A stretch of DNA of 64,000 nucleotides from Candidatus Freyarchaeum deiterrae (GCA_037305845.1 CP147778.1:3264001-3328000), one strand, 5' to 3'; shown: positions 12,917 to 64,000, counted from the stretch's first letter. The notes: generated by a model from the sequence alone, not told the origin. Program-made: numbers and translations.

Positions 12917-13960
12917 TTACTTCTTGCTAGTTCGGAAAGATAGCCCTCCTAGCGCTACCATTACTAACGCGAATGCCCCGAGTATAGTTAAGTCCAACCA
13001 CATTGGATTAACCATGTTTCCGAATATTAGTGCCTGGGCTATGTTAGCCGAATTCATAAATCCGAATGATGACACTGTGCCGCCCATTATAACTCCTCTT
13101 AAGGCGTCAACGGCGTAACTTAATGGGTTGACGAGGTTTAATCCCTGGAACCAGGATGGAATACCGTTTATCGGTAGTAATGTTGGAATTAATTGTGTCC
13201 CTTTAGTTTGGATATAGTATAGTATTTGGACCACGGGGGACAAACCGGGTATCGGTAGTATTATTCCCCAAGCCTGATAGGCTAGTACCGAGAACCAGGC
13301 TGGCAGGGCTTGTACTGGGAACATTGCTCCACTGGAGAAGAATAGAGGTAGGTTAATCAAGTTTACTATTAAGCCGAATGATTCAAAGGTTTTCATTCTT
13401 GAAGCAATAATTAAACTCATGCTCACGAAACTGATAGTTATTAAAAACATAATTGGTAGGCATTCTAGAAATTGAGTGGGGCTAATGTTAACGCCAAAGA
13501 GGAATGCTAGAAATAGAATAATTATTCCCTGAATTAATGCGTCGGTTGCTCCGCCAAGCATCTTTCCTGCGAACACCGAAACCCTTTTGAGAGGCGCAAT
13601 AAGCATTTCCTTCAAAAAACCAAATTGCCGGTCAAAGAGTGCTGAAATTCCTAGAAAAACACCCGAGAACATAAGAGCTTGTGACACGATGCCTGGAAAA
13701 AGATAGTCTATGTAGTTTACGCCACCTGACTGAGAGAAGAAGCCTGCAAATCCTAAACCGAATAGTATTAACCATACCAGAGGAGAAATAACAGCAGTAA
13801 TTATACGTGACCTATCACGCGTATACCTTTTTACTTCTCTCAGCCATATTGCGTACAAACCACCCAGCTCGGCAGTTATCCCTTCGCTCGTTTTTTCTTC
13901 TTTCGTCGCTTCTACTGCTTCTTCTTTCATTTTCACTTTACTCTTTTTTTCTTTCTTCAT
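12917..13960 (-). CDS. ABC-2 type exporter permease (DrrB-like)
   Basis: 'REVKRY.RDR', 'DRQFGFLKEMLIAP', 'NPLSYAVDALR'. Confidence 0.93.
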   Translation of the reverse strand: MKKEKKSKVKMKEEAVEATKEEKTSEGITAELGGLYAIWLREVKRYTRDRSRIITAVISPLVWLILFGLGFAGFFSQSGGVNYIDYLFPGIVSQALMFSGVFLGISALFDRQFGFLKEMLIAPLKRVSVFAGKMLGGATDALIQGIIILFLAFLFGVNISPTQFLECLPIMFLITISFVSMSLIIASRMKTFESFGLIVNLINLPLFFSSGAMFPVQALPAWFSVLAYQAWGIILPIPGLSPVVQILYYIQTKGTQLIPTLLPINGIPSWFQGLNLVNPLSYAVDALRGVIMGGTVSSFGFMNSANIAQALIFGNMVNPMWLDLTILGAFALVMVALGGLSFRTSKK

Positions 13961-13983
13961 TTTTATATCACCTTCTTTCGCAA

Positions 13984-14967
13984 TTATCTCCTTCTCGCCA
14001 TTTTTGCAAACATTCTTCCATACATAGCTGGTCCTTCTTCGCGGATTTCCCTTCCAGTATAGAAGAGGAATACATCGTTAAGTGTAGGTTCATGGAGTAT
14101 CAGTGATTCTATATCAACGCCTTGCTCTTTAGCTTCGACAGCGATAGATGATATATGTCTCTCACCATTCTCGACAGTTATCATTACCGAGTCCGCTGTG
14201 TTCTTCACGTTTTTCACAAAATCCTGTCCCGATACCATATCAGCCAATTTTTTAACCGACTTGGTTTTCACGATAATCACATCTCCACCAAGCTGTTTTT
14301 TCAACTCTGTCGGGTTTCCCTCAGCCTTTATTTCGCCCAGATCTATAATCGCCAGTCTATTGCAAAGCCTGTCGGCTTCGTCCATGTAGTGGGTGGTTAT
14401 AATTATGGTCATTTTCTCCTGCTTGGCCAGTTCATCTATGTAGTCCCATATCTTCGCACGAGTCTGGGGGTCGAGCCCGATTGTGGGTTCGTCAAGGAAC
14501 AGAACTCTCGGTCTGTGAACAAGGCCTCGCGCGATTTCGAGGCGTCTACGCATTCCTCCAGAGTATGTTCTCACAAGACTTTTTGCTCTGTCAGTAAGTT
14601 CCACAAGCTTTAGAGCCTCATCTATCCTCGGCTTTGCAACTTTTTTTGGAATATGATATAGCCTTGCATGTATTTCCATGTTCTCGCGGCCGGTTAGCTG
14701 GTCATCTATAGCCGGATCTTGGAAAACTACTCCTATTGATTTCCTTACCTGGTTCTGCTGCTTAACAACATCGTAGCCATTCACAAATGCCTCGCCTGAA
14801 GTGGGATATAACATACAGCTCAGCATGTTGAGTATGGTTGTTTTACCCGCTCCGTTCGGACCAAGTAAGCCGAATATTTCACCTTCATCAATACTAAGGT
14901 TTACTCCATTTACCGCAACCAATTCTCCATATTTTTTCACAAGGTTATGTGCCTCAATAATGTGCAT
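13984..14967 (-). CDS. ABC exporter ATP-binding subunit (DrrA-like)
   Basis: GPNGAGKT, YSGGM, LFLDEPT, TTHYM, C-terminal 'EPTLNDVFL'. Confidence 0.95.
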   Translation of the reverse strand: MHIIEAHNLVKKYGELVAVNGVNLSIDEGEIFGLLGPNGAGKTTILNMLSCMLYPTSGEAFVNGYDVVKQQNQVRKSIGVVFQDPAIDDQLTGRENMEIHARLYHIPKKVAKPRIDEALKLVELTDRAKSLVRTYSGGMRRRLEIARGLVHRPRVLFLDEPTIGLDPQTRAKIWDYIDELAKQEKMTIIITTHYMDEADRLCNRLAIIDLGEIKAEGNPTELKKQLGGDVIIVKTKSVKKLADMVSGQDFVKNVKNTADSVMITVENGERHISSIAVEAKEQGVDIESLILHEPTLNDVFLFYTGREIREEGPAMYGRMFAKMARRR

Positions 14968-15063
14968 AGATTCAACTCCAATTAATTTTGTTTTAGTTCC
15001 AAAATTTATTGATTTTTACAACGTCTTCTTAGGTTTCATTTTTCTTCCGAAAAAATTCTTCAT

Positions 15064-15609
15064 TTAACTTTCAATGAGCCTCCTAACTATATCTTCAATC
15101 TTCATAGCAGTCTCTTCTAGAGTCTTCTTAGCCTCCTCGGCGGCTTCTTCTGAGTATTCCTGTTTCAGCCTGCCCAGTAACCTGAAAATCACATCATCTA
15201 GTTTTTGCATAGCTATAAATATCCCTGTGGACCTCTCAGAAAAAATTTCAAGCCAGGGAGCCTCCATAAAGTGGGATATACTCTTGAATTGCCTCACGCG
15301 CTCAATCATCGCCTCCTTGATTTTGGTTAAATCCTCCAACAAGGTCTTCCCTTGCTCCGTCAAGGCGTAGCGCTTCATCCCAGTATCCACCGCGTCCTCC
15401 TTTATGAAACCCTTTTCCTCAAGCCAGGAGAGCAGCGGATAGATGGAGCCGGGGCTCGGCCTCCATTGTCCGTTCGTCTGCCTTTCTATCTCCGACATTA
15501 TCTCAGAGCCTGACATAGGCTTCTCGTTGAGGAGCTTTAGGATCTGGTGGCGGAGGAAACCCTTAGGAACCATTGCCATACTCTTCGTCAAACGTTTCGG
15601 GCTTGACAT
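15064..15609 (-). CDS. PadR family transcriptional regulator
   Basis: 'IL.LL.EKPMSG.EI', 'W.PSPGSIYPLL..LE..G.I', 'Y.LT.QG'. Confidence 0.93.
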   Translation of the reverse strand: MSSPKRLTKSMAMVPKGFLRHQILKLLNEKPMSGSEIMSEIERQTNGQWRPSPGSIYPLLSWLEEKGFIKEDAVDTGMKRYALTEQGKTLLEDLTKIKEAMIERVRQFKSISHFMEAPWLEIFSERSTGIFIAMQKLDDVIFRLLGRLKQEYSEEAAEEAKKTLEETAMKIEDIVRRLIES

Positions 15610-15641
15610 CTCAAATCAAATCTCTATTATTATTTATATCG

Positions 15642-15657
15642 ATGTCGATATCGACAT
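15642..15657. promoter_or_regulatory. Candidate PadR operator, perfect palindrome ATGTCGATATCGACAT
   Basis: ATGT-N8-ACAT form, lying between a TATA-like TTTATAA (~15668-15674, minus strand) and the padR start. Confidence 0.75.
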
Positions 15658-15765
15658 TGACTTTTCCTTATAAAACTTTCCCTTAACGTTTAGGACTTAG
15701 AACCATAATATCGAAATAACACTCTAAATAAATCTTCCCCAAAAAAATAAATTAAAAAAAGAATC

Positions 15766-15786
15766 AACTCCGCGGATTGCGGAGTT
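15766..15786 (-). terminator. GC hairpin followed by U-tracts, downstream of ABC permease 2
   Basis: AACTCCGCGGATTGCGGAGTT; paralogous to 12851-12870. Confidence 0.65.
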
Positions 15787-15831
15787 TCACTTTGGGGTAT
15801 GCTTTAAGGCGCTCATATGCTATGAGGCGGT

Positions 15832-16791
15832 CTACTTTCTGGTTCTGAATGAGAATGCGCCCAGTGCTAGCATTAATGCTGCGAATCCTGCAACTATAAT
15901 TATGTCTAACCAGATTGGATAAAGATTGTTTCCGAATATTAGTGAGCGGAGTATGTCAGACTGAAGAGTTGCCGGTGTGAAAGATATCACTGTGTTGCCG
16001 AGTATAATTCCTCTTAGGGCGTCGACAGCGTAAGTTAATGGGTTAAACATATTCAATACTTGGAACCATGCTGGAATACTGTTTGTCGGTACAATTACTC
16101 CAGTGTAATTGTAGATCACTATTGGTAACCATTGAGGTGTGTTGCTTACCGGGAATAATGCGCCGCTTGAAAAGAAGAGAGGTAGGTTAACCAAGTTAAC
16201 TATTAAGCCGAATGATTCAAAACTTCTCATTCTCGAAGCGATAATTATACTCATGCTCACGAAACCAATGGTTGTTAATAGCATAATTGGTAGACAGGAT
16301 AGGAATGTAACGGGGCTAATCGTGACTCCAAAGATGAATGATAGCAAGAGGACAATTGATCCCTGAATTAATGCATCGGTAGCTCCACCAAACATCTTAC
16401 CTGAGAACACTGAAATCCTTCTGATTGGCGCAATAAGCATTTCCTTCAAAAAGCCGAATTGCCGGTCATAGATTACCGAGATTCCCAGAAAAACAGACGT
16501 AAAAAGAAGAGACTGACACACTATGCCCGGAAAAATAAAGTTTACATAGTTGATGCCGCCTGACTGTCTGAAGAAACCAGCAAATCCTACACCGAATAGT
16601 ATCAGCCATACTAGAGGAGAGGTAATCGCAGTAACTATACGAGACCTATCCCGAAAATACCTTTTTATTTCCCTTAAGAATACCGCGTACATACCACGCA
16701 GCTCAGCACGTGTCTCTCCCCCAATCTTTTCTTCTTTCACCACTTCTACTTCTTCTTCCATTTTCACTTTGCTCTTTTTTTCTTTCTTCAA
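15832..16791 (-). CDS. ABC-2 type exporter permease, paralog 2 (TTG start)
   Basis: Same motifs as 12917-13960; identical MKKEKKSKVKM N-terminus. Confidence 0.93.
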   Translation of the reverse strand: MKKEKKSKVKMEEEVEVVKEEKIGGETRAELRGMYAVFLREIKRYFRDRSRIVTAITSPLVWLILFGVGFAGFFRQSGGINYVNFIFPGIVCQSLLFTSVFLGISVIYDRQFGFLKEMLIAPIRRISVFSGKMFGGATDALIQGSIVLLLSFIFGVTISPVTFLSCLPIMLLTTIGFVSMSIIIASRMRSFESFGLIVNLVNLPLFFSSGALFPVSNTPQWLPIVIYNYTGVIVPTNSIPAWFQVLNMFNPLTYAVDALRGIILGNTVISFTPATLQSDILRSLIFGNNLYPIWLDIIIVAGFAALMLALGAFSFRTRK

Positions 16792-16812
16792 TTTTATCTC
16801 CTCCTTTCATCT

Positions 16813-17802
16813 TTATCTCATGGGCCTCCCTGCTTTTGCTGCCCACATTGCTTTTGACGCACCTGGGCCCTCTTCACGGATTTCTTTTCCAGTATGGAAA
16901 AGGAACACATCGTTAAGTGTAGGTTCATGGAGTGTTACTGCTTCGATGTCAATGCCCTCATCTCTCGCCTCACAAGCCACAGCTGTTAAATGCTCCTCGC
17001 CATTCTCGACGCTTATTTTTACCGAGTCGGTTGTTTTATTGACATTTTTCACAAAATCCAGTTTAGACGCCATATCGGCCATTTTATTAATTGACTTTGT
17101 TTTCACGGTGATCACGTCTCCGCCGAGCTGTTTTTTCAGTTCTGCTGGGGTTCCTTCGGCCTTTATTTCGCCCTGGTCTATAATCGCAATTCTGTTACAA
17201 AGCCGGTCGGCTTCATCCATGTAGTGGGTGGTTATAATTATGGTCATTTTCTCCTGTTTGGACAGCGCGTCTATGTAATCCCATATCTTCGCACGGGTTT
17301 GAGGGTCAAGCCCGATTGTGGGTTCGTCAAGGAACAGAACTCTTGGTCTGTGTACGAGGCCTCGCGCAATTTCGAGGCGTCTCCGCATTCCACCGGAGTA
17401 GGTTTTCACAAGACTTTTCGACCTATCGGTAAGTTCTACAAGCTTTAGAGCCTCGTCTATCCTCTGCTTCGCAACTTTACTTGGAACATTGTATAACATT
17501 GAGTGTATCTCCATGTTCTCGCGGCCGGTTAGGTTCTCGTCTATGGCTGGATCCTGGAAAACTACGCCTATTGATTTCCTTACCTGGTTCTGCTGCTTAA
17601 TAACGTCGAAGCCATTCACGTACGCCTCGCCAGATGTAGGAGTTAGCATGCAGCTTAACATAGACAGTATCGTTGTTTTCCCTGCTCCATTTGGACCAAG
17701 CAAGCCATATATTTCGCCTTCACTAATCTTAATGTTTACTCCCTTTACAGCAACCAATTCACCATATTTTTTCACAAGATTATGAGTCTCTACAATGTCC
17801 AT
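16813..17802 (-). CDS. ABC exporter ATP-binding subunit, paralog 2
   Basis: Walker A/B and signature motif; start MDIVETHN chosen by paralogy. Confidence 0.94.
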   Translation of the reverse strand: MDIVETHNLVKKYGELVAVKGVNIKISEGEIYGLLGPNGAGKTTILSMLSCMLTPTSGEAYVNGFDVIKQQNQVRKSIGVVFQDPAIDENLTGRENMEIHSMLYNVPSKVAKQRIDEALKLVELTDRSKSLVKTYSGGMRRRLEIARGLVHRPRVLFLDEPTIGLDPQTRAKIWDYIDALSKQEKMTIIITTHYMDEADRLCNRIAIIDQGEIKAEGTPAELKKQLGGDVITVKTKSINKMADMASKLDFVKNVNKTTDSVKISVENGEEHLTAVACEARDEGIDIEAVTLHEPTLNDVFLFHTGKEIREEGPGASKAMWAAKAGRPMR

Positions 17803-18155
17803 AGAAATCACTATCATCAATTTGTTATTCTTTTTCAAATTCTACAAGTGATGCATTTAAACCTTTTTCGAATTTGACTCAACCCATCCCCTAAAGATAA
17901 ATGAAACCGTTAAATAAACTAGGTTTCAAGTCATCCTCCGTAAATATAAAATTCTAATAACAGCAAATCCCTATAAATTTTACCTAATCAAAAATTTAAA
18001 ATGGTAATGCGATGAGCATTTGCAGAAAAATAAGTCAATGACAAGGCTCCGTTCCAAACCCCACTAACTGAAACATATAACATAACTAATGTCAAAGGCT
18101 ACACCCTTGCAATCAAGTCAAGACTAGAGAAGAAAAAATATTTGCTCTTTCTCCA

Positions 18156-19151
18156 TCATCGTCCAGGCCTCCCATATCCGAACGTTGCTCTCGTAAATGA
18201 CATTTGTGAACCAGCTGCCTCTTCGCGAATTTCGGTTCCGGTATAGAAGAGGAATACATCTTCAAGCGTAGGTTCATGAATTGTTACTGATTTAATATCA
18301 ATGCCTTGGTCACTCGCTGCACAAGCTACATCAGTGAGATGCGTCTCGCCATTCTCAACGTTCAGCTTTACTTCATCAGATGTTTTATTAACATTTTTCA
18401 CAAAATCCAGTTTAGATGCCATATCAACCATTTTATTAATCGACTTGGTTCTCACAGTGATTATATCTCCGCCGAGCCGTTTTTTCAGCTCTTCGGGGGT
18501 CCCTTCGGCCTTTATTTCGCCCATGTCCATAATCGCAATTCTGTTACAAAGCCGGTCGGCTTCATCCATGTAGTGGGTGGTTATAATTATGGTCATTTTC
18601 TCATTTTTGGCCAAGTTATCGATGTAGTCCCATATTTTCGACCGGGTTTGAGGGTCGAGCCCGATTGTGGGTTCGTCGAGGAATAGAACTTTTGGTCTGT
18701 GTACGAGGCCTCGTGCGATTTCGAGGCGTCTCCGCATTCCACCGGAGTAGGTTTTCACAAGACTTTTCGACCTATCGGTAAGTTCTACAAGCTTTAGAGC
18801 CTCGCCTATCCTCTGCTTCGCAACTTTGCCAGGAACATTATAGAGCATAGCGTGTATTTCCAAATTCTCGCGACCGGTTAAGTTCTCATCAACAGCGGGG
18901 TCCTGAAAAACTATTCCTATCGATCGTCTAACTCGTTCTGATTGCGTCACAACATTATAGCCGTTCACATAAGCCTCACCAGAGGTGGGGAGTAGCATAC
19001 AGGAGAGAATGGATAATGTCGTTGTTTTGCCTGCTCCGTTCGGACCAATCAAGCCGAATATTTCTCCTTCACTAACCTTAATGTCTATTCCTTTAACCGC
19101 AATCAAGTCTCCGTACTTTTTCACTAGCTTGCGAGTCTCTATAACATACAT
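18156..19151 (-). CDS. ABC exporter ATP-binding subunit, paralog 3 (no permease directly downstream)
   Basis: Walker A/B and signature motif intact. Confidence 0.94.
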   Translation of the reverse strand: MYVIETRKLVKKYGDLIAVKGIDIKVSEGEIFGLIGPNGAGKTTTLSILSCMLLPTSGEAYVNGYNVVTQSERVRRSIGIVFQDPAVDENLTGRENLEIHAMLYNVPGKVAKQRIGEALKLVELTDRSKSLVKTYSGGMRRRLEIARGLVHRPKVLFLDEPTIGLDPQTRSKIWDYIDNLAKNEKMTIIITTHYMDEADRLCNRIAIMDMGEIKAEGTPEELKKRLGGDIITVRTKSINKMVDMASKLDFVKNVNKTSDEVKLNVENGETHLTDVACAASDQGIDIKSVTIHEPTLEDVFLFYTGTEIREEAAGSQMSFTRATFGYGRPGR

Positions 19152-56052: not shown

Positions 56053-59000
56053 ATGAAAAAGAGGGGAATACTAGTAATCATAATGATTCTTCTTCTAACA
56101 ATTTCGACACTTGTTGTACTTTCCGCATCAAACTCGAACTTTTCACCAATATTCCTAAACTCCCCCCAAAATAACATAGGAATAAGCACAAAATCATACA
56201 GCGGAAGCGGAACCCAGTTAAACGCAACACTCTACATAACAAACACTTACAATAATACACCGAATGCCACAAACACAATCTCCAATATATATGTTCCATC
56301 CCCTAGCGGTTGGGAAATCCTCAGGTCAAATCTGACTCTTTCTAATATTACTGCCCCAAATACAACCCTAGCATCGAATTACACCACTACTAACGCTACT
56401 TTGGATCTTAGCAATTTAACTGCGATGTCATTCCAACTGACAAACAATGCCTATCTGGACAATATCAGCGCTCAATTGAATGCAACTAATCCACCACCCA
56501 CTGCGAACTTTTATGTTTACAGTGCAGCCAATAACGGTGGGAAACCAATACCACTGCTTTTGATTGCATCCAACACTAGTGGTATTTCAATTCCAAGTGG
56601 AAATACTTGGGTTAATGCTAGCTTCGGACATCAATTTTTGAATATTTCGACAACATATAACAACACCTTTTTCATAGGCATTTGGCAGAGTTCGGGCCCT
56701 AAGGCTCCTCTGTGGAATGCTGTACAAGAATCTTCACCCCCTGGGAATGGATATGTTTACAATAATACTGGCTCAAGTTGGGTAGAAGTCCAAAATTATG
56801 ACTGTCAACTCGTAGTTAACGTTAGTGCAAGTAATAATACGCCAGCTGATAGTGCCTTCCCCTCAGAGATAGGATTAACCATTAACGGTTCACCGGTTCA
56901 GAATAGCAGTAAGGGTAACGGAGTATGGATTAATAGTACCGCAACTTCTGGCACAAATGGGTACGTTTTTTATGATGTGAATTCAACTTGGATGTCTACT
57001 GTGAGTTTCTCTTACATTTGGAATATTACTATGAGCAGGAATGCATCTGTTAGTGCACTCACTAATTTTTATGTTAGCCTTAATACTGGTGCTTCTTGGA
57101 ATATTACTGTGAATGCTGCTGGTAGTGACGGCTTCCCGCTGACCAATGGTGCTAATCACATAAACATCACAGGGACTCCCTCAGACTGGAATTTTACAAA
57201 TTCGATGGTTTATAACGTGTCTGGCAGCCAGTGGATTAATCTTGATTCTCGCCCACCTGATAATATCAGTTTCACTGCCGGTAATGGTACTTGGATTGTG
57301 AACTGCACAGCTCCTAACTATGTTTCCAGCATAGGCTTTTGGGTTGGTGGGGTTCCGGTTGCAAACGCGACCCTATACGACAACCTTAATATTACGGTGA
57401 ACTTTGCTGCCTTGGTTAACGGTTCCGCTAACCTAAGCATCTACGATTCATTTCAGATTCTGAATCATACGGAGGTAAAAACTGTAACTTCTTCTTCAAG
57501 CACTTGGTTTACTTGGAATGTTAGTAATAATGCCACTTCCACTGGACCATATAATGTAACCATCAGTTTTAAGGATGGATCGGTAGTCGGATACAATGAA
57601 ACATCTCTTTTGATTGTGCCTCTAACGAATACTTCTCTCGCCGTGACCAGTTATCCGCCCAACGTTGAGTACCCTGGCCCTGTTCCCATAACTCTTTACT
57701 ATAACAATACGGATAACAATAGCGGTGTAGCGGGGGCAACTATCACTGCCTATTTCACAAACTCAACATCCGCAACGATTCAGGGGCTTATCACTGATTA
57801 TGGAAACGGCACTTACAGTCTTAATTTAAATTTCAGTACAGACATTGGCATCCTTAGCGTGAAGTTCAATGCTAGCAATGTAAGACTCTTCAACTCGAGT
57901 GTTTCCAGTCCAATCCAGGTTAACTATACGCAGGCATTGGTTAGTATTCAGCAGTTGAGTACACCTTCAAGTGTTCCACTTGGTACCAGCTTGGTGGTTG
58001 AGGCTCAGCTATTGTATAATTCCAGCGGTCTTCCTGTTGCTGTTGGTGAGACTGTTTATTTCAATTTTTCAGTGAGATTTGGTGACAATTCAAGCACAAT
58101 TCTTCCAAGTAGTGGCCCAACTAATAGTACGGGTTGGGCAAAAGGTACTATTCAGGTGCCAAGTAATGCTGTTGAGCTAAATGTCACTGCTTATTACATC
58201 GGTAAAACTACCGTTTCTGGAGCAACAAGTTCTACGAACTCCGTTACTTTAACAAGTGCTCCGGTTAACCCCCCGGATACTGGTTTAGCTGCGTTGATGT
58301 TTCTTATTCTGACGCAGCAGAATCAGAACTCTCTGCTTTATCCTATTCTGGGGGTTGTAATCGGCTCTGTAGTAGCGGTTTTCGTGATAACTGATAGAGC
58401 GCGTAGGAAACACGAGGTTCCTCTAAAGGCTTTGGCTAGTCTTGAGAATATTATTGTGGATCACATTCTCAGCGGCGTCACAATTTGGGCTTTTGACTTC
58501 TTAAAGATGGAACAGGACGCAGTTCTGGTTTCTGGTTTCATGTCAGCGGTCAAGTCCTTCTTGGGAGAGATGAAGAAGGGCGGTCTGAGGAAATTGGAGA
58601 CAGAGTTTGGAACATTCATTAGAGAGGATGGAGAACTTCTGACCGTTACTTGTATCACAAGTGGTAGCACTCAAGAGGAAGAGAAATGGATCAGAGAAAA
58701 GCTGCACAGCTTCGTGGCAACTGCCGAGCAGCAAAACTGGGACAGACTCGTGAACTGGAGTGGCGAAGTTTCACACTTCAGATCGAAATTCTTGAAGACC
58801 CTGTCATCGTTGATCGATTTAGAGAAGGCGGAGCAGCTTCAGAGAGAGAAGGTTCTAAAAATACTTAAGGAAAGAGAGCGTCTTCAGGCGGAGCTCAATA
58901 ATCTGGGTTCAAAGCTGGAAACTCTTAACCAGCAACTCTCCGGAGGGATAATTGGCGAAGGGGAGTTTGAAGCTCGGAGGACCGAGATAGAACCGAAGTA

Positions 59001-59268
59001 CGACAAAATTCAGATGGACTACGTCCGTGCCAGTATCCTTCTATCAAAGATACCCTACACACTAGAAACTGTGTGGGAGACACCGAAAACCCATGAGGAA
59101 ATAGAAAAGATAAGGGACAAATTCATTGAAATCACCATGGAGATAGATTCGCTGCAAAGGAAAGAGCAAATAGGCCGCATAAGTTCCAAAGAATTAAAAC
59201 ATAAAGAAAATCTTAGGAAGGAGCTAACGGCTCTCATAGAAAAACTGGATAAAAGGCAAGCAGAATAA
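56053..59268 (+). CDS. Single-pass surface glycoprotein with cytoplasmic longin-like domain and helical hairpins
   Basis: Signal peptide; ~730-aa N/S/T-rich beta ectodomain; TM 'LLYPILGVVIGSVVAVFVIT'; then 'NIIV.H..SG..IW.FDF....D..LVSGF.SAV.SF..E'; charged helical C-terminus. Confidence 0.75.
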   Translation: MKKRGILVIIMILLLTISTLVVLSASNSNFSPIFLNSPQNNIGISTKSYSGSGTQLNATLYITNTYNNTPNATNTISNIYVPSPSGWEILRSNLTLSNITAPNTTLASNYTTTNATLDLSNLTAMSFQLTNNAYLDNISAQLNATNPPPTANFYVYSAANNGGKPIPLLLIASNTSGISIPSGNTWVNASFGHQFLNISTTYNNTFFIGIWQSSGPKAPLWNAVQESSPPGNGYVYNNTGSSWVEVQNYDCQLVVNVSASNNTPADSAFPSEIGLTINGSPVQNSSKGNGVWINSTATSGTNGYVFYDVNSTWMSTVSFSYIWNITMSRNASVSALTNFYVSLNTGASWNITVNAAGSDGFPLTNGANHINITGTPSDWNFTNSMVYNVSGSQWINLDSRPPDNISFTAGNGTWIVNCTAPNYVSSIGFWVGGVPVANATLYDNLNITVNFAALVNGSANLSIYDSFQILNHTEVKTVTSSSSTWFTWNVSNNATSTGPYNVTISFKDGSVVGYNETSLLIVPLTNTSLAVTSYPPNVEYPGPVPITLYYNNTDNNSGVAGATITAYFTNSTSATIQGLITDYGNGTYSLNLNFSTDIGILSVKFNASNVRLFNSSVSSPIQVNYTQALVSIQQLSTPSSVPLGTSLVVEAQLLYNSSGLPVAVGETVYFNFSVRFGDNSSTILPSSGPTNSTGWAKGTIQVPSNAVELNVTAYYIGKTTVSGATSSTNSVTLTSAPVNPPDTGLAALMFLILTQQNQNSLLYPILGVVIGSVVAVFVITDRARRKHEVPLKALASLENIIVDHILSGVTIWAFDFLKMEQDAVLVSGFMSAVKSFLGEMKKGGLRKLETEFGTFIREDGELLTVTCITSGSTQEEEKWIREKLHSFVATAEQQNWDRLVNWSGEVSHFRSKFLKTLSSLIDLEKAEQLQREKVLKILKERERLQAELNNLGSKLETLNQQLSGGIIGEGEFEARRTEIEPKYDKIQMDYVRASILLSKIPYTLETVWETPKTHEEIEKIRDKFIEITMEIDSLQRKEQIGRISSKELKHKENLRKELTALIEKLDKRQAE

Positions 59269-59348: not shown

Positions 59349-60779
59349 TCAGGTATTCATTATTTTCGGGCCGAATGGGCAGGAAACATCAGGTCCCAGC
59401 CAGTCTCCACCAGTTATGTACGCAGTGTATCTGCAACCGCCGCATATACTCTTGTATGTGCATTTTTTACAAGCACCTTTTAGCTCCTTTCGGTTTCTTA
59501 TGTAATTTAGTACTTCGTTGTGCATCCAGATCTCTTCCAAGCTCTGTTCAAGAAGGTTTCCCAATTTTATTGGGGCGGGGACACAGGGAAGCAGGTCTCC
59601 AGAAGCGGTGAGCCCCGCGTAGGTTAAGCCGGTCGAGCATCCACTAAAGCCTGCTGCAAGCTTTCTCACAATTTTGGAAACTTCAAGTCCAAATTTATCT
59701 TGAAACATTTTTTCGTGTCCTGATAAAGCTTCACTCACTGTGAGGATTTCACCATTTGAACGCTCGTGACATAGACGAGCATAGTAGGTCATTCCCCGAG
59801 CATAACACTGAATACCAAACCCGTTAACCACGCTTTCATGAAATTTTTTGTATATCGCTTCAAGTGCTCTTATCTTCTCCTTAGGCTTCACGTCAAGGTA
59901 CATTGCGTCGCATCCACGACCAGCAGGTATAAGCCGATTCAAATAGAATCTGGTCACACCAAGTTTCTCCGCCAAATCCATGGTCTCTTCCACCTCGTTA
60001 ACATTCTCACTGTACAGAGTCATGGTGGTGGCCAGCTCGTCAAAGCCCACAGAGGCGCAATTTCTTATTCCCTGAATCGTGGCTTCAAAGCTCCCGGGCC
60101 TGTTTCTCAGGAAATCATGAGTCGCAGGTCTCGCGCCGTCTAAACCTATTTCTACCCGTTTAATACCTGTCTCAGCCAGTCTTTTCGCTGTCTCAGGAGT
60201 CATCATGGTACCATTGGATGCTATTGTGCAAAGCATGCCGCAGTCGTATGCTCTTTTAATCACGTCGAAGATGTCCTTGCGTAGTAGCGGTTCTCCTCCA
60301 GAAAAGGTGAGTATAGCTACTCCTGCGTCGCTCATGTTGTCTACAACCTTGAAGGCTTGAGAAGTAGTTAATTCAGGATGTGAGGAAGCTGGTGAGGAGT
60401 CTTGATGGCAGTGAAGGCAGTTGAGGTTGCATCTATTAGTGAAATTCCAAACAATAGTTATTGGGGCACCGCAGGGCTGTGGATCCCTTAATCCAAAATT
60501 CGCAACACCCTTCACCACGCTGAGCATACACTTACGGATTAGCGAATCTTCCAGCAACCGTTTCACGGTGTTACTATCAATTCCCAGACGGAAGAATATT
60601 AGGCGAATTAGGGGCCTTAGAGCCGTTGATGTTAACAAGCAACTTTCACAGACTGAGTGCCCATTTTTTGAATATTCGTCAAAGACTGAAAGTAATCGTT
60701 CCTGCCCACATTTCTCACAATTACCTGTCAAATAGTGTGAAAGAGCTTTCCAAACAGGGTTAAAAACACTATATTTCAT
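59349..60779 (-). CDS. Radical SAM/SPASM protein with N-terminal CxxC...CxxC extension
   Basis: 'WNFTNRCNLNCLHC', 'FSGGEPL', SPASM 'GC...G.LLPC...C..C....C.GCR..A...C'. Confidence 0.92.
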   Translation of the reverse strand: MKYSVFNPVWKALSHYLTGNCEKCGQERLLSVFDEYSKNGHSVCESCLLTSTALRPLIRLIFFRLGIDSNTVKRLLEDSLIRKCMLSVVKGVANFGLRDPQPCGAPITIVWNFTNRCNLNCLHCHQDSSPASSHPELTTSQAFKVVDNMSDAGVAILTFSGGEPLLRKDIFDVIKRAYDCGMLCTIASNGTMMTPETAKRLAETGIKRVEIGLDGARPATHDFLRNRPGSFEATIQGIRNCASVGFDELATTMTLYSENVNEVEETMDLAEKLGVTRFYLNRLIPAGRGCDAMYLDVKPKEKIRALEAIYKKFHESVVNGFGIQCYARGMTYYARLCHERSNGEILTVSEALSGHEKMFQDKFGLEVSKIVRKLAAGFSGCSTGLTYAGLTASGDLLPCVPAPIKLGNLLEQSLEEIWMHNEVLNYIRNRKELKGACKKCTYKSICGGCRYTAYITGGDWLGPDVSCPFGPKIMNT

Positions 60780-61032: not shown

Positions 61033-61980
61033 TTATGTGCTTAAGTCGAGAGATAGGGTTTGTAAACATTTTGCTTCTACTAGATCCGATATCGCATTTT
61101 TGAGGATTCCCAACATTTTTTCTCTATTTTTCGGGTCGGTGGCAACTAATCCATATGCTTTTATTCCTATTTGTTTCTCGATTGCCTCTGGAGGGACTGC
61201 GTCTGGTAAATCCTGCTTGTTCGCTACTAATATGACGATTACATCTGGTTTCTCAGTTTTAACCATTTGTAATATTCCTTTAGTTTCCGTTAGGCTTTCA
61301 GCTTTTGAGTCGGTAACAAGTATTGCCACGTCGGCTCCCTCAAGAAAGGGTTGCCAGAGTTTCCTGTAACGAGGCTGGCCCGAAAAGTCCCAAAAAACAA
61401 GTCTCGTGTCCTTGGGTTCAAAATCGAACTCTTTGACATCCACTCCGACCGTTGGAACATAGGCGAAATTCGGTTCTTCTCCTATAATGAGTTTTAGGAG
61501 TGAAGTTTTTCCAACTCCCCCCCGACCGAGGATCGCCATTTTAAAGAAGGGAAACAAAATCTCATCCACCGTCTGTCCAAATTGCTCAAAAATATTTTCT
61601 ACGACTTTTTCCTCTGTCTCTTTATCTGTCTCCTTCTGTTCCACCGCATTCTCTACTTTCTCCACTTTTGAAGCCTTCTTAAGGAGTTTGAATTCTTTCT
61701 GTAATTTTATGAGTTTGTTTGAGACGTACATTTCGTCTTCGTTTTTGTCTGTACACAATAAGAAGATTACATCCTCAAAGAGGGAGTAAGCATATTTCAG
61801 GTTTTCAATACTTATACATTCGATTCTTTCGGTCTGGTCAATGTTTTGTATAAAGGCTGCTAACTCTTTAATAAAATGGGATACGAGTTCATGGTCAAGT
61901 TTAAGTTCTCCGTAAAACTTTTTGAAGAGCTCCGTTCCAGACTTTTCGAGAATGAATACTCCATATATCACTTTCCTCAC
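61033..61980 (-). CDS. Longin-like domain + Arf-like small GTPase fusion, copy 1
   Basis: G1 GRGGVGKTS, G2 PTVG, G3 WDFSGQ, 'RYRKLW', G4 NKQD; N-terminal 'IYGVFILEKSG..LF.KFY'. Confidence 0.85.
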   Translation of the reverse strand: MRKVIYGVFILEKSGTELFKKFYGELKLDHELVSHFIKELAAFIQNIDQTERIECISIENLKYAYSLFEDVIFLLCTDKNEDEMYVSNKLIKLQKEFKLLKKASKVEKVENAVEQKETDKETEEKVVENIFEQFGQTVDEILFPFFKMAILGRGGVGKTSLLKLIIGEEPNFAYVPTVGVDVKEFDFEPKDTRLVFWDFSGQPRYRKLWQPFLEGADVAILVTDSKAESLTETKGILQMVKTEKPDVIVILVANKQDLPDAVPPEAIEKQIGIKAYGLVATDPKNREKMLGILKNAISDLVEAKCLQTLSLDLST

Positions 61981-62066
61981 TTCCGAAAATTTTTAACATT
62001 TATTTGTAAGAGTTCCCTCTTTAGGGGCGGGGTAGTTGACCTGTTAGTGGCAATATAATTTATGTA

Positions 62067-63005
62067 TTAATGTTGGGCGGTTGTTGTTTTAGTTCTAGAT
62101 TCTATTATTTTGTTTATCGTTTCTTTGAGGATTTTCATCATTTTTTCAATGTAGTTTAGGTCGGTTGCAACTAATCCGTGCGCCTTTAGTCCTAAGTATT
62201 TTCCAACTTTTTCCGGAGGAATAGCGTCTGGTAAATCTTGCTTGTTCGCAATTAGTATGATGTTTACCTTCGGTTCTTCTTTCTTAATCAGTTGGTATAT
62301 TCTTTTGGTTTCCTCCAAGTTTTCCACAGTCGAATCGGTGACCAGCACGACAATGTCGGCTCCTTCGAGTAGGGGCTTCCAGAGTTTCCTGTAACGTTGC
62401 TGACCGGAAAAGTCCCAAAAAACAAGTCTCATGTTCTTTGATTCAAAGCCGAACTCTTTAACGTCCACTCCAACTGTTGGGATGTATGTGGGATCCTGCT
62501 CTTCGCCCATGATGAGTTTTCGGATAGTAGTTTTTCCAACCCCTCCCTGTCCCAGGATCACTATTTTAAGGTAGGGGAACAAAATCGCATCCATCTTATC
62601 CTCAAATCCTACTGAAGAATCCTCAGCCGGTATCACTGCATCTGGGTTGATTCCTTCTTTTTCCATGGCAGCCCTGACTGCAGCTGATCTCGGCATGCCC
62701 TTGTGAAGTTTAAGAAATTCCACTTGAACTTTTACTATTTTGTCAGTGAGATATATTTCGTCTTCCTTTTGATCCGAGCATATTACAGAAATCATATCCT
62801 CAAATATAGAGTAAACAAATTTCAGCTTTTCAAGATTCAGAGTACCGATTCTTTCGGTCTGGTCCATGTCTTGTACAAATGATGTTAATTCTGTTACAAA
62901 ACGGAATAAGCGATCTTGGTCAAAGTTGATATTTCCATAAAATTTTTGGTAAAAGTTTCTTCCAAACCTGTCGAATGTGAATACTCCATATATCACTTTT
63001 CTCAC
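62067..63005 (-). CDS. Longin-like domain + Arf-like small GTPase fusion, copy 2
   Basis: GQGGVGKTT, PTVG, WDFSGQ, NKQD; same N-domain. Confidence 0.85.
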   Translation of the reverse strand: MRKVIYGVFTFDRFGRNFYQKFYGNINFDQDRLFRFVTELTSFVQDMDQTERIGTLNLEKLKFVYSIFEDMISVICSDQKEDEIYLTDKIVKVQVEFLKLHKGMPRSAAVRAAMEKEGINPDAVIPAEDSSVGFEDKMDAILFPYLKIVILGQGGVGKTTIRKLIMGEEQDPTYIPTVGVDVKEFGFESKNMRLVFWDFSGQQRYRKLWKPLLEGADIVVLVTDSTVENLEETKRIYQLIKKEEPKVNIILIANKQDLPDAIPPEKVGKYLGLKAHGLVATDLNYIEKMMKILKETINKIIESRTKTTTAQH

Positions 63006-63044
63006 CTTCGAAAACTTTTAACATTTATTTATGAGCCCCCCTCT

Positions 63045-64000
63045 TTAGGGGTGAGTAGGTAACTTGTAGTCGGCAATTAATTCTTTTAGGTTCTGCTTTT
63101 TTGGAGCTTTGACTTTTTGGGATTTTGCTTCTGTTATGTCTTGTATCGTTTTTTTGAGAAGTTCTAGTATTTTTTTTCTGTTTTTTGGGTCGGTGGCGAC
63201 AAATCCGTGTGCTTTCATTCCCAAGTAATTTTCTATTGTCTCTGGAGGAGTTGCGTCCGGCAAATCCTGCTTGTTAGCTACTAATAAGATTTTTATGTCT
63301 GGTTTCTCCGCCTTAATCAGGTCTAATATCCCTTTAGTTTCCGCTAGGTTTTGAATTTTTGAGTCGGTGACTAGTATTGCTATGTCGGCTCCTTCAAGGA
63401 AGGGTTGCCAGAGTTTCCTGTAACGTTGCTGACCGGAAAAGTCCCAAAATACAAGCTTCATTTTCTTGGGTTCAAAATCGAATTCTTTAACGTCCACTCC
63501 AACCGTGGGACTATAAGTTGAATCCTGGTCTTCGCCCATAACTAGTTTTAGTAGCGAAGTTTTTCCAACTCCCCCCTGGCCGAGAATAGCCATTTTAAAG
63601 AAGGGGAATAAAATCTCATCCACGATAAGTTCAAATCTCCCGTAAGAATTCTCTCCGACTCTCTGCGCGATATCTTCATCTTCATCCTCCTGTTCTGTTT
63701 CATCCTCAGCCTTCCCTGCTTTCAATACGTTATCAATGGGTATGAATTCTTTCTGCAATTTTATGAGTTTGTTCGCTATGTACATTTCGTCATCGCTTTT
63801 ATCTATGCATAGCGCGAAGAGCTTAACATCATGAATGGAGTAGACAATTTTCAGGTCTTCAAAACTTAGAGTTTCAATTCTTTCACTGTGGTCAATTTTT
63901 TGTATATAGGCTGCAAAATCTCTCAGCAAACGGAGCGTTAGCTCGTTATCAAATTTAAGATCTTTGTAAAACTTCTGGAAGAGCACTTTTCCAGACCAAT
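63045..64000 (-). CDS. Longin-like domain + Arf-like small GTPase fusion, copy 3; 5' end outside window
   Basis: Frame open to the window edge (..WSGKVLFQKFY); GQGGVGKTS, WDFSGQ, NKQD. Confidence 0.85.
   Translation of the reverse strand, partial: WSGKVLFQKFYKDLKFDNELTLRLLRDFAAYIQKIDHSERIETLSFEDLKIVYSIHDVKLFALCIDKSDDEMYIANKLIKLQKEFIPIDNVLKAGKAEDETEQEDEDEDIAQRVGENSYGRFELIVDEILFPFFKMAILGQGGVGKTSLLKLVMGEDQDSTYSPTVGVDVKEFDFEPKKMKLVFWDFSGQQRYRKLWQPFLEGADIAILVTDSKIQNLAETKGILDLIKAEKPDIKILLVANKQDLPDATPPETIENYLGMKAHGFVATDPKNRKKILELLKKTIQDITEAKSQKVKAPKKQNLKELIADYKLPTHP

Follow-up and report, generated by a model that had tools for sequence, protein, structure and literature searches.

Fusions of a longin domain to a small GTPase are part of the described repertoire of Asgard archaea. 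As summarised in PMC4917890, ArfL GTPases of this group were described by Klinger et al. in 2016, the same account mentioning five longin fusions to Arf-like GTPases of Lokiarchaeum reported in that year. Tran et al. (PMC10933270) listed 26 roadblock or longin fusions in Prometheoarchaeum MK-D1 and modelled dimers of Asgard GTPase-roadblock/longin fusions. No biochemical or experimental work on an ArfL protein was found in the literature searched.

The DNA analysed here, a stretch of 64,000 nucleotides (the window) from Candidatus Freyarchaeum deiterrae, ends in three tandem genes, A, B and C, of this architecture. A first-pass annotation had judged the architecture not to be new in itself, as the fusions reported since 2016 bear out. 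Published Asgard ArfL proteins (such as NVM28342.1, NHI93165.1 and Lokiarch_05440/05490) fall in the same clade as the trio and share its N-terminal longin, its P-loop, its VTDS, ANKQDLP and G-(L/M)-V-A-(I/T)-(D/N) motifs, the short connector before the last strand and a minimal form of about 280-330 aa, whereas the trio represents a subfamily specific to Freyarchaeia, in which the linker is longer and often acidic. The MK-D1 fusions (PMC10933270) likewise combine a longin with a GTPase annotated as Arf, and their modelled dimers form through the platform domain; unlike the trio, they are classed by structure as Rag-like and lie mostly outside operons. ArfR/AArf proteins and eukaryotic Arf1, Arl and SRbeta, with the longins of AP sigma, zeta-COP and SRX, have the Ras-superfamily fold, several motifs and a sigma-type longin in common with the trio, which nevertheless occupies a different clade, has a different P-loop and carries neither amphipathic helix nor myristoylation site. 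Moreover, its longin is fused to the GTPase instead of sitting on a recruited coat. Some genuine AArfs carry longins too, so the missing amphipathic helix alone is not decisive against Arf. Rag/Gtr proteins also join a GTPase to a platform of the longin/roadblock superfamily and have no lipid anchor, but they form a separate clade and their platform is a C-terminal roadblock instead of an N-terminal longin.

A family profile recovered 204 proteins at E <=1e-30 among 50%-identity representatives, with a longin ahead of the G domain in 109 of the best 150 profile matches. The family was matched in 46 of the 61 Asgard genomes searched, usually two to eight times each, and f5, f18 and f23, in which ArfR is most abundant among the sampled families, gave no ArfL match. 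By appearance, ArfL and ArfR are largely complementary across the sampled families: those three have many ArfR matches and no ArfL match, f1, f3 and f7 have ArfL matches and lack ArfR at the thresholds used, and f9 and f19 have both. The genome of the window contains two further longin-ArfL genes (C1:328504 and C1:2037562) and two stand-alone ArfL genes. Four other profile matches (P0080, P0092, P0126 and P0137) are 570-665 aa long, with three or four G domains per chain.

Three tandem genes and their domains

The host genome is a single contig of 3,576,204 bp with 40.7% GC; close homologues of the trio carry the names Freyarchaeota or Jordarchaeaceae, and the host is a Freyarchaeia Asgard archaeon. 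At the end of the window, three co-oriented, stop-free open reading frames on the minus strand (Table 1) each code for a longin, a linker that differs between copies and a G domain of the Ras superfamily, which confirms the three tandem longin-GTPase fusions first annotated here as three intact genes. Copy C is complete in the genome (C1:3327045-3328034). Translation probably starts at GTG codons 9 nt downstream of the called starts, at 61971 (A), 62996 (B) and 64025 (C), since ATG takes this place in orthologues and the GTG closely follows a ribosome-binding site of GGTGAG type; the products would then measure 312, 309 and 326 aa, respectively. Pairwise protein identity between the copies is 51-62%. 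The B-to-A spacer is homologous to the spacers preceding internal copies in two other arrays and ends in an A/T-rich stretch and a GGTGAG-type ribosome-binding site. The C-to-B spacer is shorter, as the reading frame of copy C continues into the ancestral spacer. This copy, whose linker is acidic (net -9), gains a C-terminal extension of about 14 aa via a +1 shift, and its orthologue in the L003 array has the same; the shift is therefore not a sequencing error. A scan for sigma-70 promoters and terminators, with a model unsuited to archaea, stayed at chance level. In this genome, a profile made from the DNA ahead of the first copies matched the upstream region of the dispersed paralogue alone (E 0.003, with biased composition) and no KaiC gene, so that a shared promoter or leader is not confirmed.

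Table 1. Features of the array and of the region upstream of it (window positions unless prefixed L001)
Feature	Position	Strand	Remarks
Copy A	61033-61980	-	third in transcription order; probable longin-ArfL fusion
Copy A, longin	~61971-61672	-	
Copy A, G domain	~61551-61078	-	
Spacer B-to-A	61981-62066	-	part of duplicated unit
Copy B	62067-63005	-	second in transcription order; probable longin-ArfL fusion
Spacer C-to-B	63006-63044	-	short
Copy C	63045-64000, running on to window-equivalent 64034	-	first in transcription order; probable longin-ArfL fusion
Conserved wHTH-like gene, 302 aa	L001:8264-9172 (window-equivalent 64264-65172)	-	just upstream of array
Rag/Gtr-type GTPase, 372 aa	L001:9513-10631	-	between TackOD1-Lrp and wHTH genes, in this genome only
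RasL gene	L001:15119-15646		7 kb upstream of array
GP-motif longin-like N-terminus fused to TackOD1	L001:17404-18840 (C1:3337404-3338840)	+	9 kb upstream of array

The N-terminal domain is a longin, with sigma-adaptins as its nearest solved relatives. In an AlphaFold2 model built from a 47-row family alignment, its topology is beta-beta-alpha-beta-beta-beta-alpha-alpha, the longin order with a strand first (E2-8, E14-19, H27-44, E50-55, E58-65, E68-75, H80-107, H117-139), at a pLDDT of about 70-88 per block over residues 1-100; the linker that follows is of low confidence, and the pTM of 0.57 gives no fixed arrangement of domains. The Pfam family PF01217 (Clat_adaptor_s) recognises copies A (22.9 bits against a cut-off of 22.5) and C (27.7 bits), with B below the cut-off; copy A has Arf, Ras and Roc matches as well. 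Compared with the PDB, the family profile matched AP-2, AP-3 and AP-4 sigma chains first (E 6e-6 to 2e-4), then mu chains, VAMP7, delta-COP and Mon1, and Atlas models gave TM values of 0.81 for Sybindin/Sedlin, 0.83 for Longin and 0.76 for the adaptor small chain. A single-sequence AlphaFold2 run on the N-domain produced a poor model (pLDDT 63) that was set aside as evidence; with it, a VIA structure search returned nothing above Z 4.9, and Foldseek gave weak matches with sigma-adaptins on top (E 4e-3, rmsd ~11). A roadblock/LC7 identity was rejected, as the chain opens with a strand and not a helix and no roadblock appeared among the profile matches in the PDB. The longin reminiscent of sigma-adaptin that had been recognised by eye is thus upheld by the predicted topology, the PDB profile and the Atlas comparison, and the structure prediction proposed at that stage, once run, returned a longin topology and not a roadblock.

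The G domains are complete from G1 to G5, with PT(V/I)G, WDxxGQ (the Gln kept), R.LW, NKQD and a G5 of the form G(L/F)VAT; G149, G154, K155, T174, D195, G198, Q199 and N251-D254 are invariant in 47 family rows. The Arf-type motifs first read from the sequence (PTVG, WDxxGQ, R.LW, NKQD) are indeed present, the first as PT(V/I)G, whereas the G5 then called non-canonical turns out to be the normal form of the ArfL family, its Ala aligned with the G5 of Arf and MglA. The reported lack of a lipidation motif also stands: neither Gly2 nor CAAX nor a transmembrane segment was found in the A, B and C proteins, and an N-terminal amphipathic helix is absent from the trio, the N-terminus being a longin strand. 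The motif set as a whole is a mosaic with the P-loop GxGGVGKT. The GLxxAGK P-loop, which Asgard Rag proteins use as well, occurs in none of 43 ArfL-clade rows, against all 19 top-scoring Asgard Arf-like rows and all 18 eukaryotic Arfs. Taking an ArfL motif set that is our own reading of the ArfL rows in Table S3 of Vargova et al. and not a published definition, G..[GS]VGK is found in 40 and a VTDS-type motif in 32 of the 43 ArfL-clade rows, and both in 0/19 of the top Asgard Arf rows and 0/18 of the eukaryotic Arfs.

Placement among Asgard GTPases

Similarity and structure searches tie Rab with Arf. The best PDB sequence match of the G domain is Rab6 (69 bits), with Arl3 next (62 bits); Pfam scores for Arf, Ras and Roc are near-tied and uninformative for family; and the fold search (Z ~20-21, rmsd ~2 A over 150-165 residues to Rab/Arf structures) was filled by the G domain when run on full-length proteins and gave no separation of Rab from Arf. 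A tree was therefore built from 101 G domains over 160 columns, comprising the trio with related proteins, the RasL, MglA and Rag proteins of the genome, 20 Asgard proteins that were the top Arf-scoring ones and mostly of ArfR type, and 18 eukaryotic Arfs, without eukaryotic Rab, Rag, Sar1 or SRbeta. The trio falls within a long-stemmed, Asgard-only ArfL clade of 43 rows (support 100/99, the bootstrap being not fully settled). This clade includes P0060, P0067, P0106 and P0166, close relatives, by anchors matched by eye, of NVM28342.1, NHI93165.1, Lokiarch_05490 and NVM28297.1, which are labelled 'ArfL, tree' in Table S3 of Vargova et al. (10.1101/2024.02.28.582541). An AU test rejects the grouping of the trio's subfamily with ArfR and eukaryotic Arf (p-AU 0.003); in this small tree of 160 columns, the whole ArfL clade as sister to ArfR+Arf is not rejected (p-AU 0.43). 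ArfL is excluded from the Arf clade in two large published analyses, those of Vargova et al. and of Zhu et al. (PMC11914678).

Judged from sequence comparison, the three proteins are very probably Asgard ArfL GTPases. The earlier reading of the G domains as Arf-related fails, given their place in the ArfL clade, the AU test, the different P-loop and the two published exclusions; they group outside the Arf-related clade, and Arf-lineage membership of the trio is largely refuted. Given the ArfL placement, the likeness to Arf1-AP/COPI or SRbeta-SRalpha is structural, not ancestral. Two other assignments were rejected. A Rag/Gtr identity fails because there is no C-terminal roadblock, the protein stopping shortly after the last G-domain helix, and because mean identity to Rag rows is 19-23% and these rows are separate in the tree. 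A RasL or Rab-like identity was discarded as the 11 RasL rows of the genome group apart, in a clade supported at 100/99, in a tree with eukaryotic Rabs left outside.

Duplication history and gene neighbourhood

DNA repeats at 1025/1029-nt spacing and 70-79% identity mark a true tandem triplication and not a chance arrangement, and the homology of the internal spacers identifies the duplicated unit as gene plus spacer, roughly 1.03 kb. Copies at the same site number one in L079/L080 and in G007-G010, three in the window and in L008, and four in L003; in G007-G010, another copy lies upstream of the TackOD1 gene. The L003 and L008 arrays each contain a one-to-one orthologue of C and of B (100/100), the latter being their last copy; the remaining members differ. 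Head-to-tail arrays outside this genus were not found among the matches listed (best 150 of 218). What had been flagged as a notable triplicated array is thus real as a triplication but represents a variable-copy tandem expansion that two other Freyarchaeia contigs share. Identity between copies is 63-73% in the G domain, 40-55% in the longin and 23-37% in the linker, longins and linkers drifting faster than G domains. The array is under purifying selection: dN lies well below dS in all copies, most strongly in the G domain (dN 0.16-0.22 vs dS 0.57-0.92). An assembly artefact was rejected, the copies being just 70-79% identical in DNA and orthologous arrays occurring in independent samples, as were pseudogenes, given the lack of stops and dN below dS.

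Upstream of the array lie a conserved TackOD1-Lrp/AsnC gene and a gene for a coiled-coil-wHTH protein, and KaiC/GvpD-type ATPase genes flank the locus. The order TackOD1-Lrp, wHTH, ArfL recurs in L004, L008, L069-L072 and L079/L080, again with flanking KaiC/GvpD genes, and dispersed ArfL paralogues in four relatives also adjoin KaiC/GvpD-type genes. The window genome's dispersed paralogue at C1:328504 has no KaiC neighbour, Jordarchaeales orthologues are placed among housekeeping genes, and the linkage is seen within one genus only. TackOD1 and KaiC-type ATPases have been described as archaeal signal-transduction parts with unknown output (PMC5847659). The 302-aa wHTH-like protein has a helical N-part, a coiled coil and a C-terminal winged-HTH-like segment, without a Pfam match, and two to three paralogues in the genome. 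Together with the Rag/Gtr-type and RasL genes, the array brings three GTPase families within ~11 kb. Furthermore, the product of the GP-motif gene upstream carries the GP motif and preceding Arg of FLCN/NPRL2-type GAP longins, a motif described in PMC12290439, and is a candidate GAP. The genome encodes more than 20 other longin proteins. A gene related to this candidate sits directly upstream of the ArfL paralogue C1:2037562 (L075:8429-9508), and three further tandem GP-motif longin-like genes are found at C1:639090-642395 of G000, so that tandem expansion of such genes recurs in the genome.

Possible roles of the array

On balance, and with moderate confidence, the array is read as a lineage-specific tandem expansion of longin-bearing ArfL switches whose longin dimerises or docks, set in an archaeal signalling locus. 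Each protein would act as a soluble GTP/GDP switch, as family knowledge and the presence of the Mg-binding Thr, the switch II Gln and the guanine-specific NKQD suggest; lacking a lipid anchor and an amphipathic helix, it would reach membranes only through partners. The longin, on its flexible linker, may serve as a docking or dimerisation module, a weaker proposal than the switch role, and could pair with another longin, either in a sibling copy or among the more than 20 others in the genome. Such pairing would place regulators against the G domain, as in a Rag dimer, but with the platform at the opposite end. The likeness of the G domains and the divergence of longins and linkers suggest one chemistry with different partners, longin divergence possibly changing those partners, and the likely setting would be archaeal-type signal transduction with KaiC and TackOD1 genes, not coat recruitment. 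A complex prediction for C+B weakly supports longin-mediated dimerisation: it scored 0.36, the best control reaching 0.00, the runs agree on at least 85% of contacts, and the pLDDT of the partner is at least 72. The mark is passed by 58 of 80 solved and 2 of 110 mismatched pairs; passes at a score <=0.60 consist of 7 of the 80 solved pairs and both passing mismatches, a range in which, by the tool's rating, wrong calls outnumber right ones, and near relatives of a true partner pass too, so that hetero- and homodimers are not separable. Against docking through fixed partners, a copy number of 1 to 4 with differing paralogue sets argues against an obligatory heteromer, and synteny confined to one genus may be inherited gene order.

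That same variation in copy number (1, 3 or 4 at one site, with differing middle members), together with G domains 63-73% identical, would suit near-neutral birth-and-death or a dosage effect, in which largely redundant monomeric switches form an array without special meaning and each longin either works in cis on the G domain attached to it or binds a single partner common to all. We regard this as possible but rather unlikely, as each of the three arrays retains one-to-one orthologues of the C and B types (100/100), no copy is disrupted and dN stays well below dS throughout, and longins and linkers diverge faster than G domains. The conservation of the C and B types is also consistent with a Rag-like obligate heteromer, with C, B and A joined through their longins and holding different nucleotide states. 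Adjacent co-oriented genes with short spacers would fit it, as would the weak C+B prediction, and in MK-D1 an operon-encoded Rag-like pair was modelled as a heterodimer (PMC10933270). Such an assembly is nevertheless distinctly unlikely, since the site holds just one copy in close relatives, the catalytic motifs are alike in all three proteins and show no asymmetry, and the prediction cannot separate homo- from heterodimers. Least probable, and very unlikely, is a relic of an Arf-adaptor or SRbeta-SRalpha system at membranes, that is, Arf-lineage GTPases pre-fused to a sigma/zeta-like coat longin: the longin is nearest to AP sigma subunits, PT(V/I)G, R.LW and NKQD are shared with Arf, and a sister relation of the whole ArfL to ArfR+Arf survives in the small tree (p-AU 0.43), but the subfamily itself is excluded from ArfR+Arf (p 0.003), the Arf-type P-loop and amphipathic helix are missing, two large published trees put ArfL outside the Arf clade, and no member of the family turned up where ArfR is most abundant among the sampled Asgard families.

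The triplication is genuine but largely ordinary, and its architecture is known and widespread among Asgard archaea. It belongs to the ArfL side branch and for that reason has no bearing on the origin of Arf or of vesicle coats. Its importance is modest and its value practical. The ArfL family is spread over most Asgard lineages, and the three paralogues here, which are small, look soluble, have diverged naturally and lie in a closed genome beside candidate partners, offer a convenient test case for whether fused longins serve as dimerisation or GEF/GAP platforms in archaea. A bolder extension of the preferred switch model, unlikely as we rate it, has selective longin-mediated heterodimers, an N-terminal-longin mirror of the Rag dimer, wired to KaiC/GvpD ATPases, TackOD1 and the GP-motif longin as candidate GAP. 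If true, it would give the uncharacterised ArfL family its first set of partners and connect archaeal KaiC signalling with eukaryote-like GTPase switches.

Other genes were noted in the window. At 56053-59268 (+), a 1071-aa protein has a signal-like N-terminus, a large region rich in Asn, Ser and Thr, a transmembrane helix and, on the cytoplasmic side, a longin-like segment plus a coiled coil; it matches the ArfL longin profile weakly (E 0.0012, probability 19%). Its paralogues lie from L001:19244-20000 onward (C1:3339244 and C1:3340274), and no gene of this type was seen beside the array in relatives. A radical SAM/SPASM protein is encoded downstream of the array (59349-60779, -), with an orthologue near the L008 array too. 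Finally, three related ABC-type ATPase genes and two related permease-like genes at 12917-19151 (-) form another local tandem expansion.
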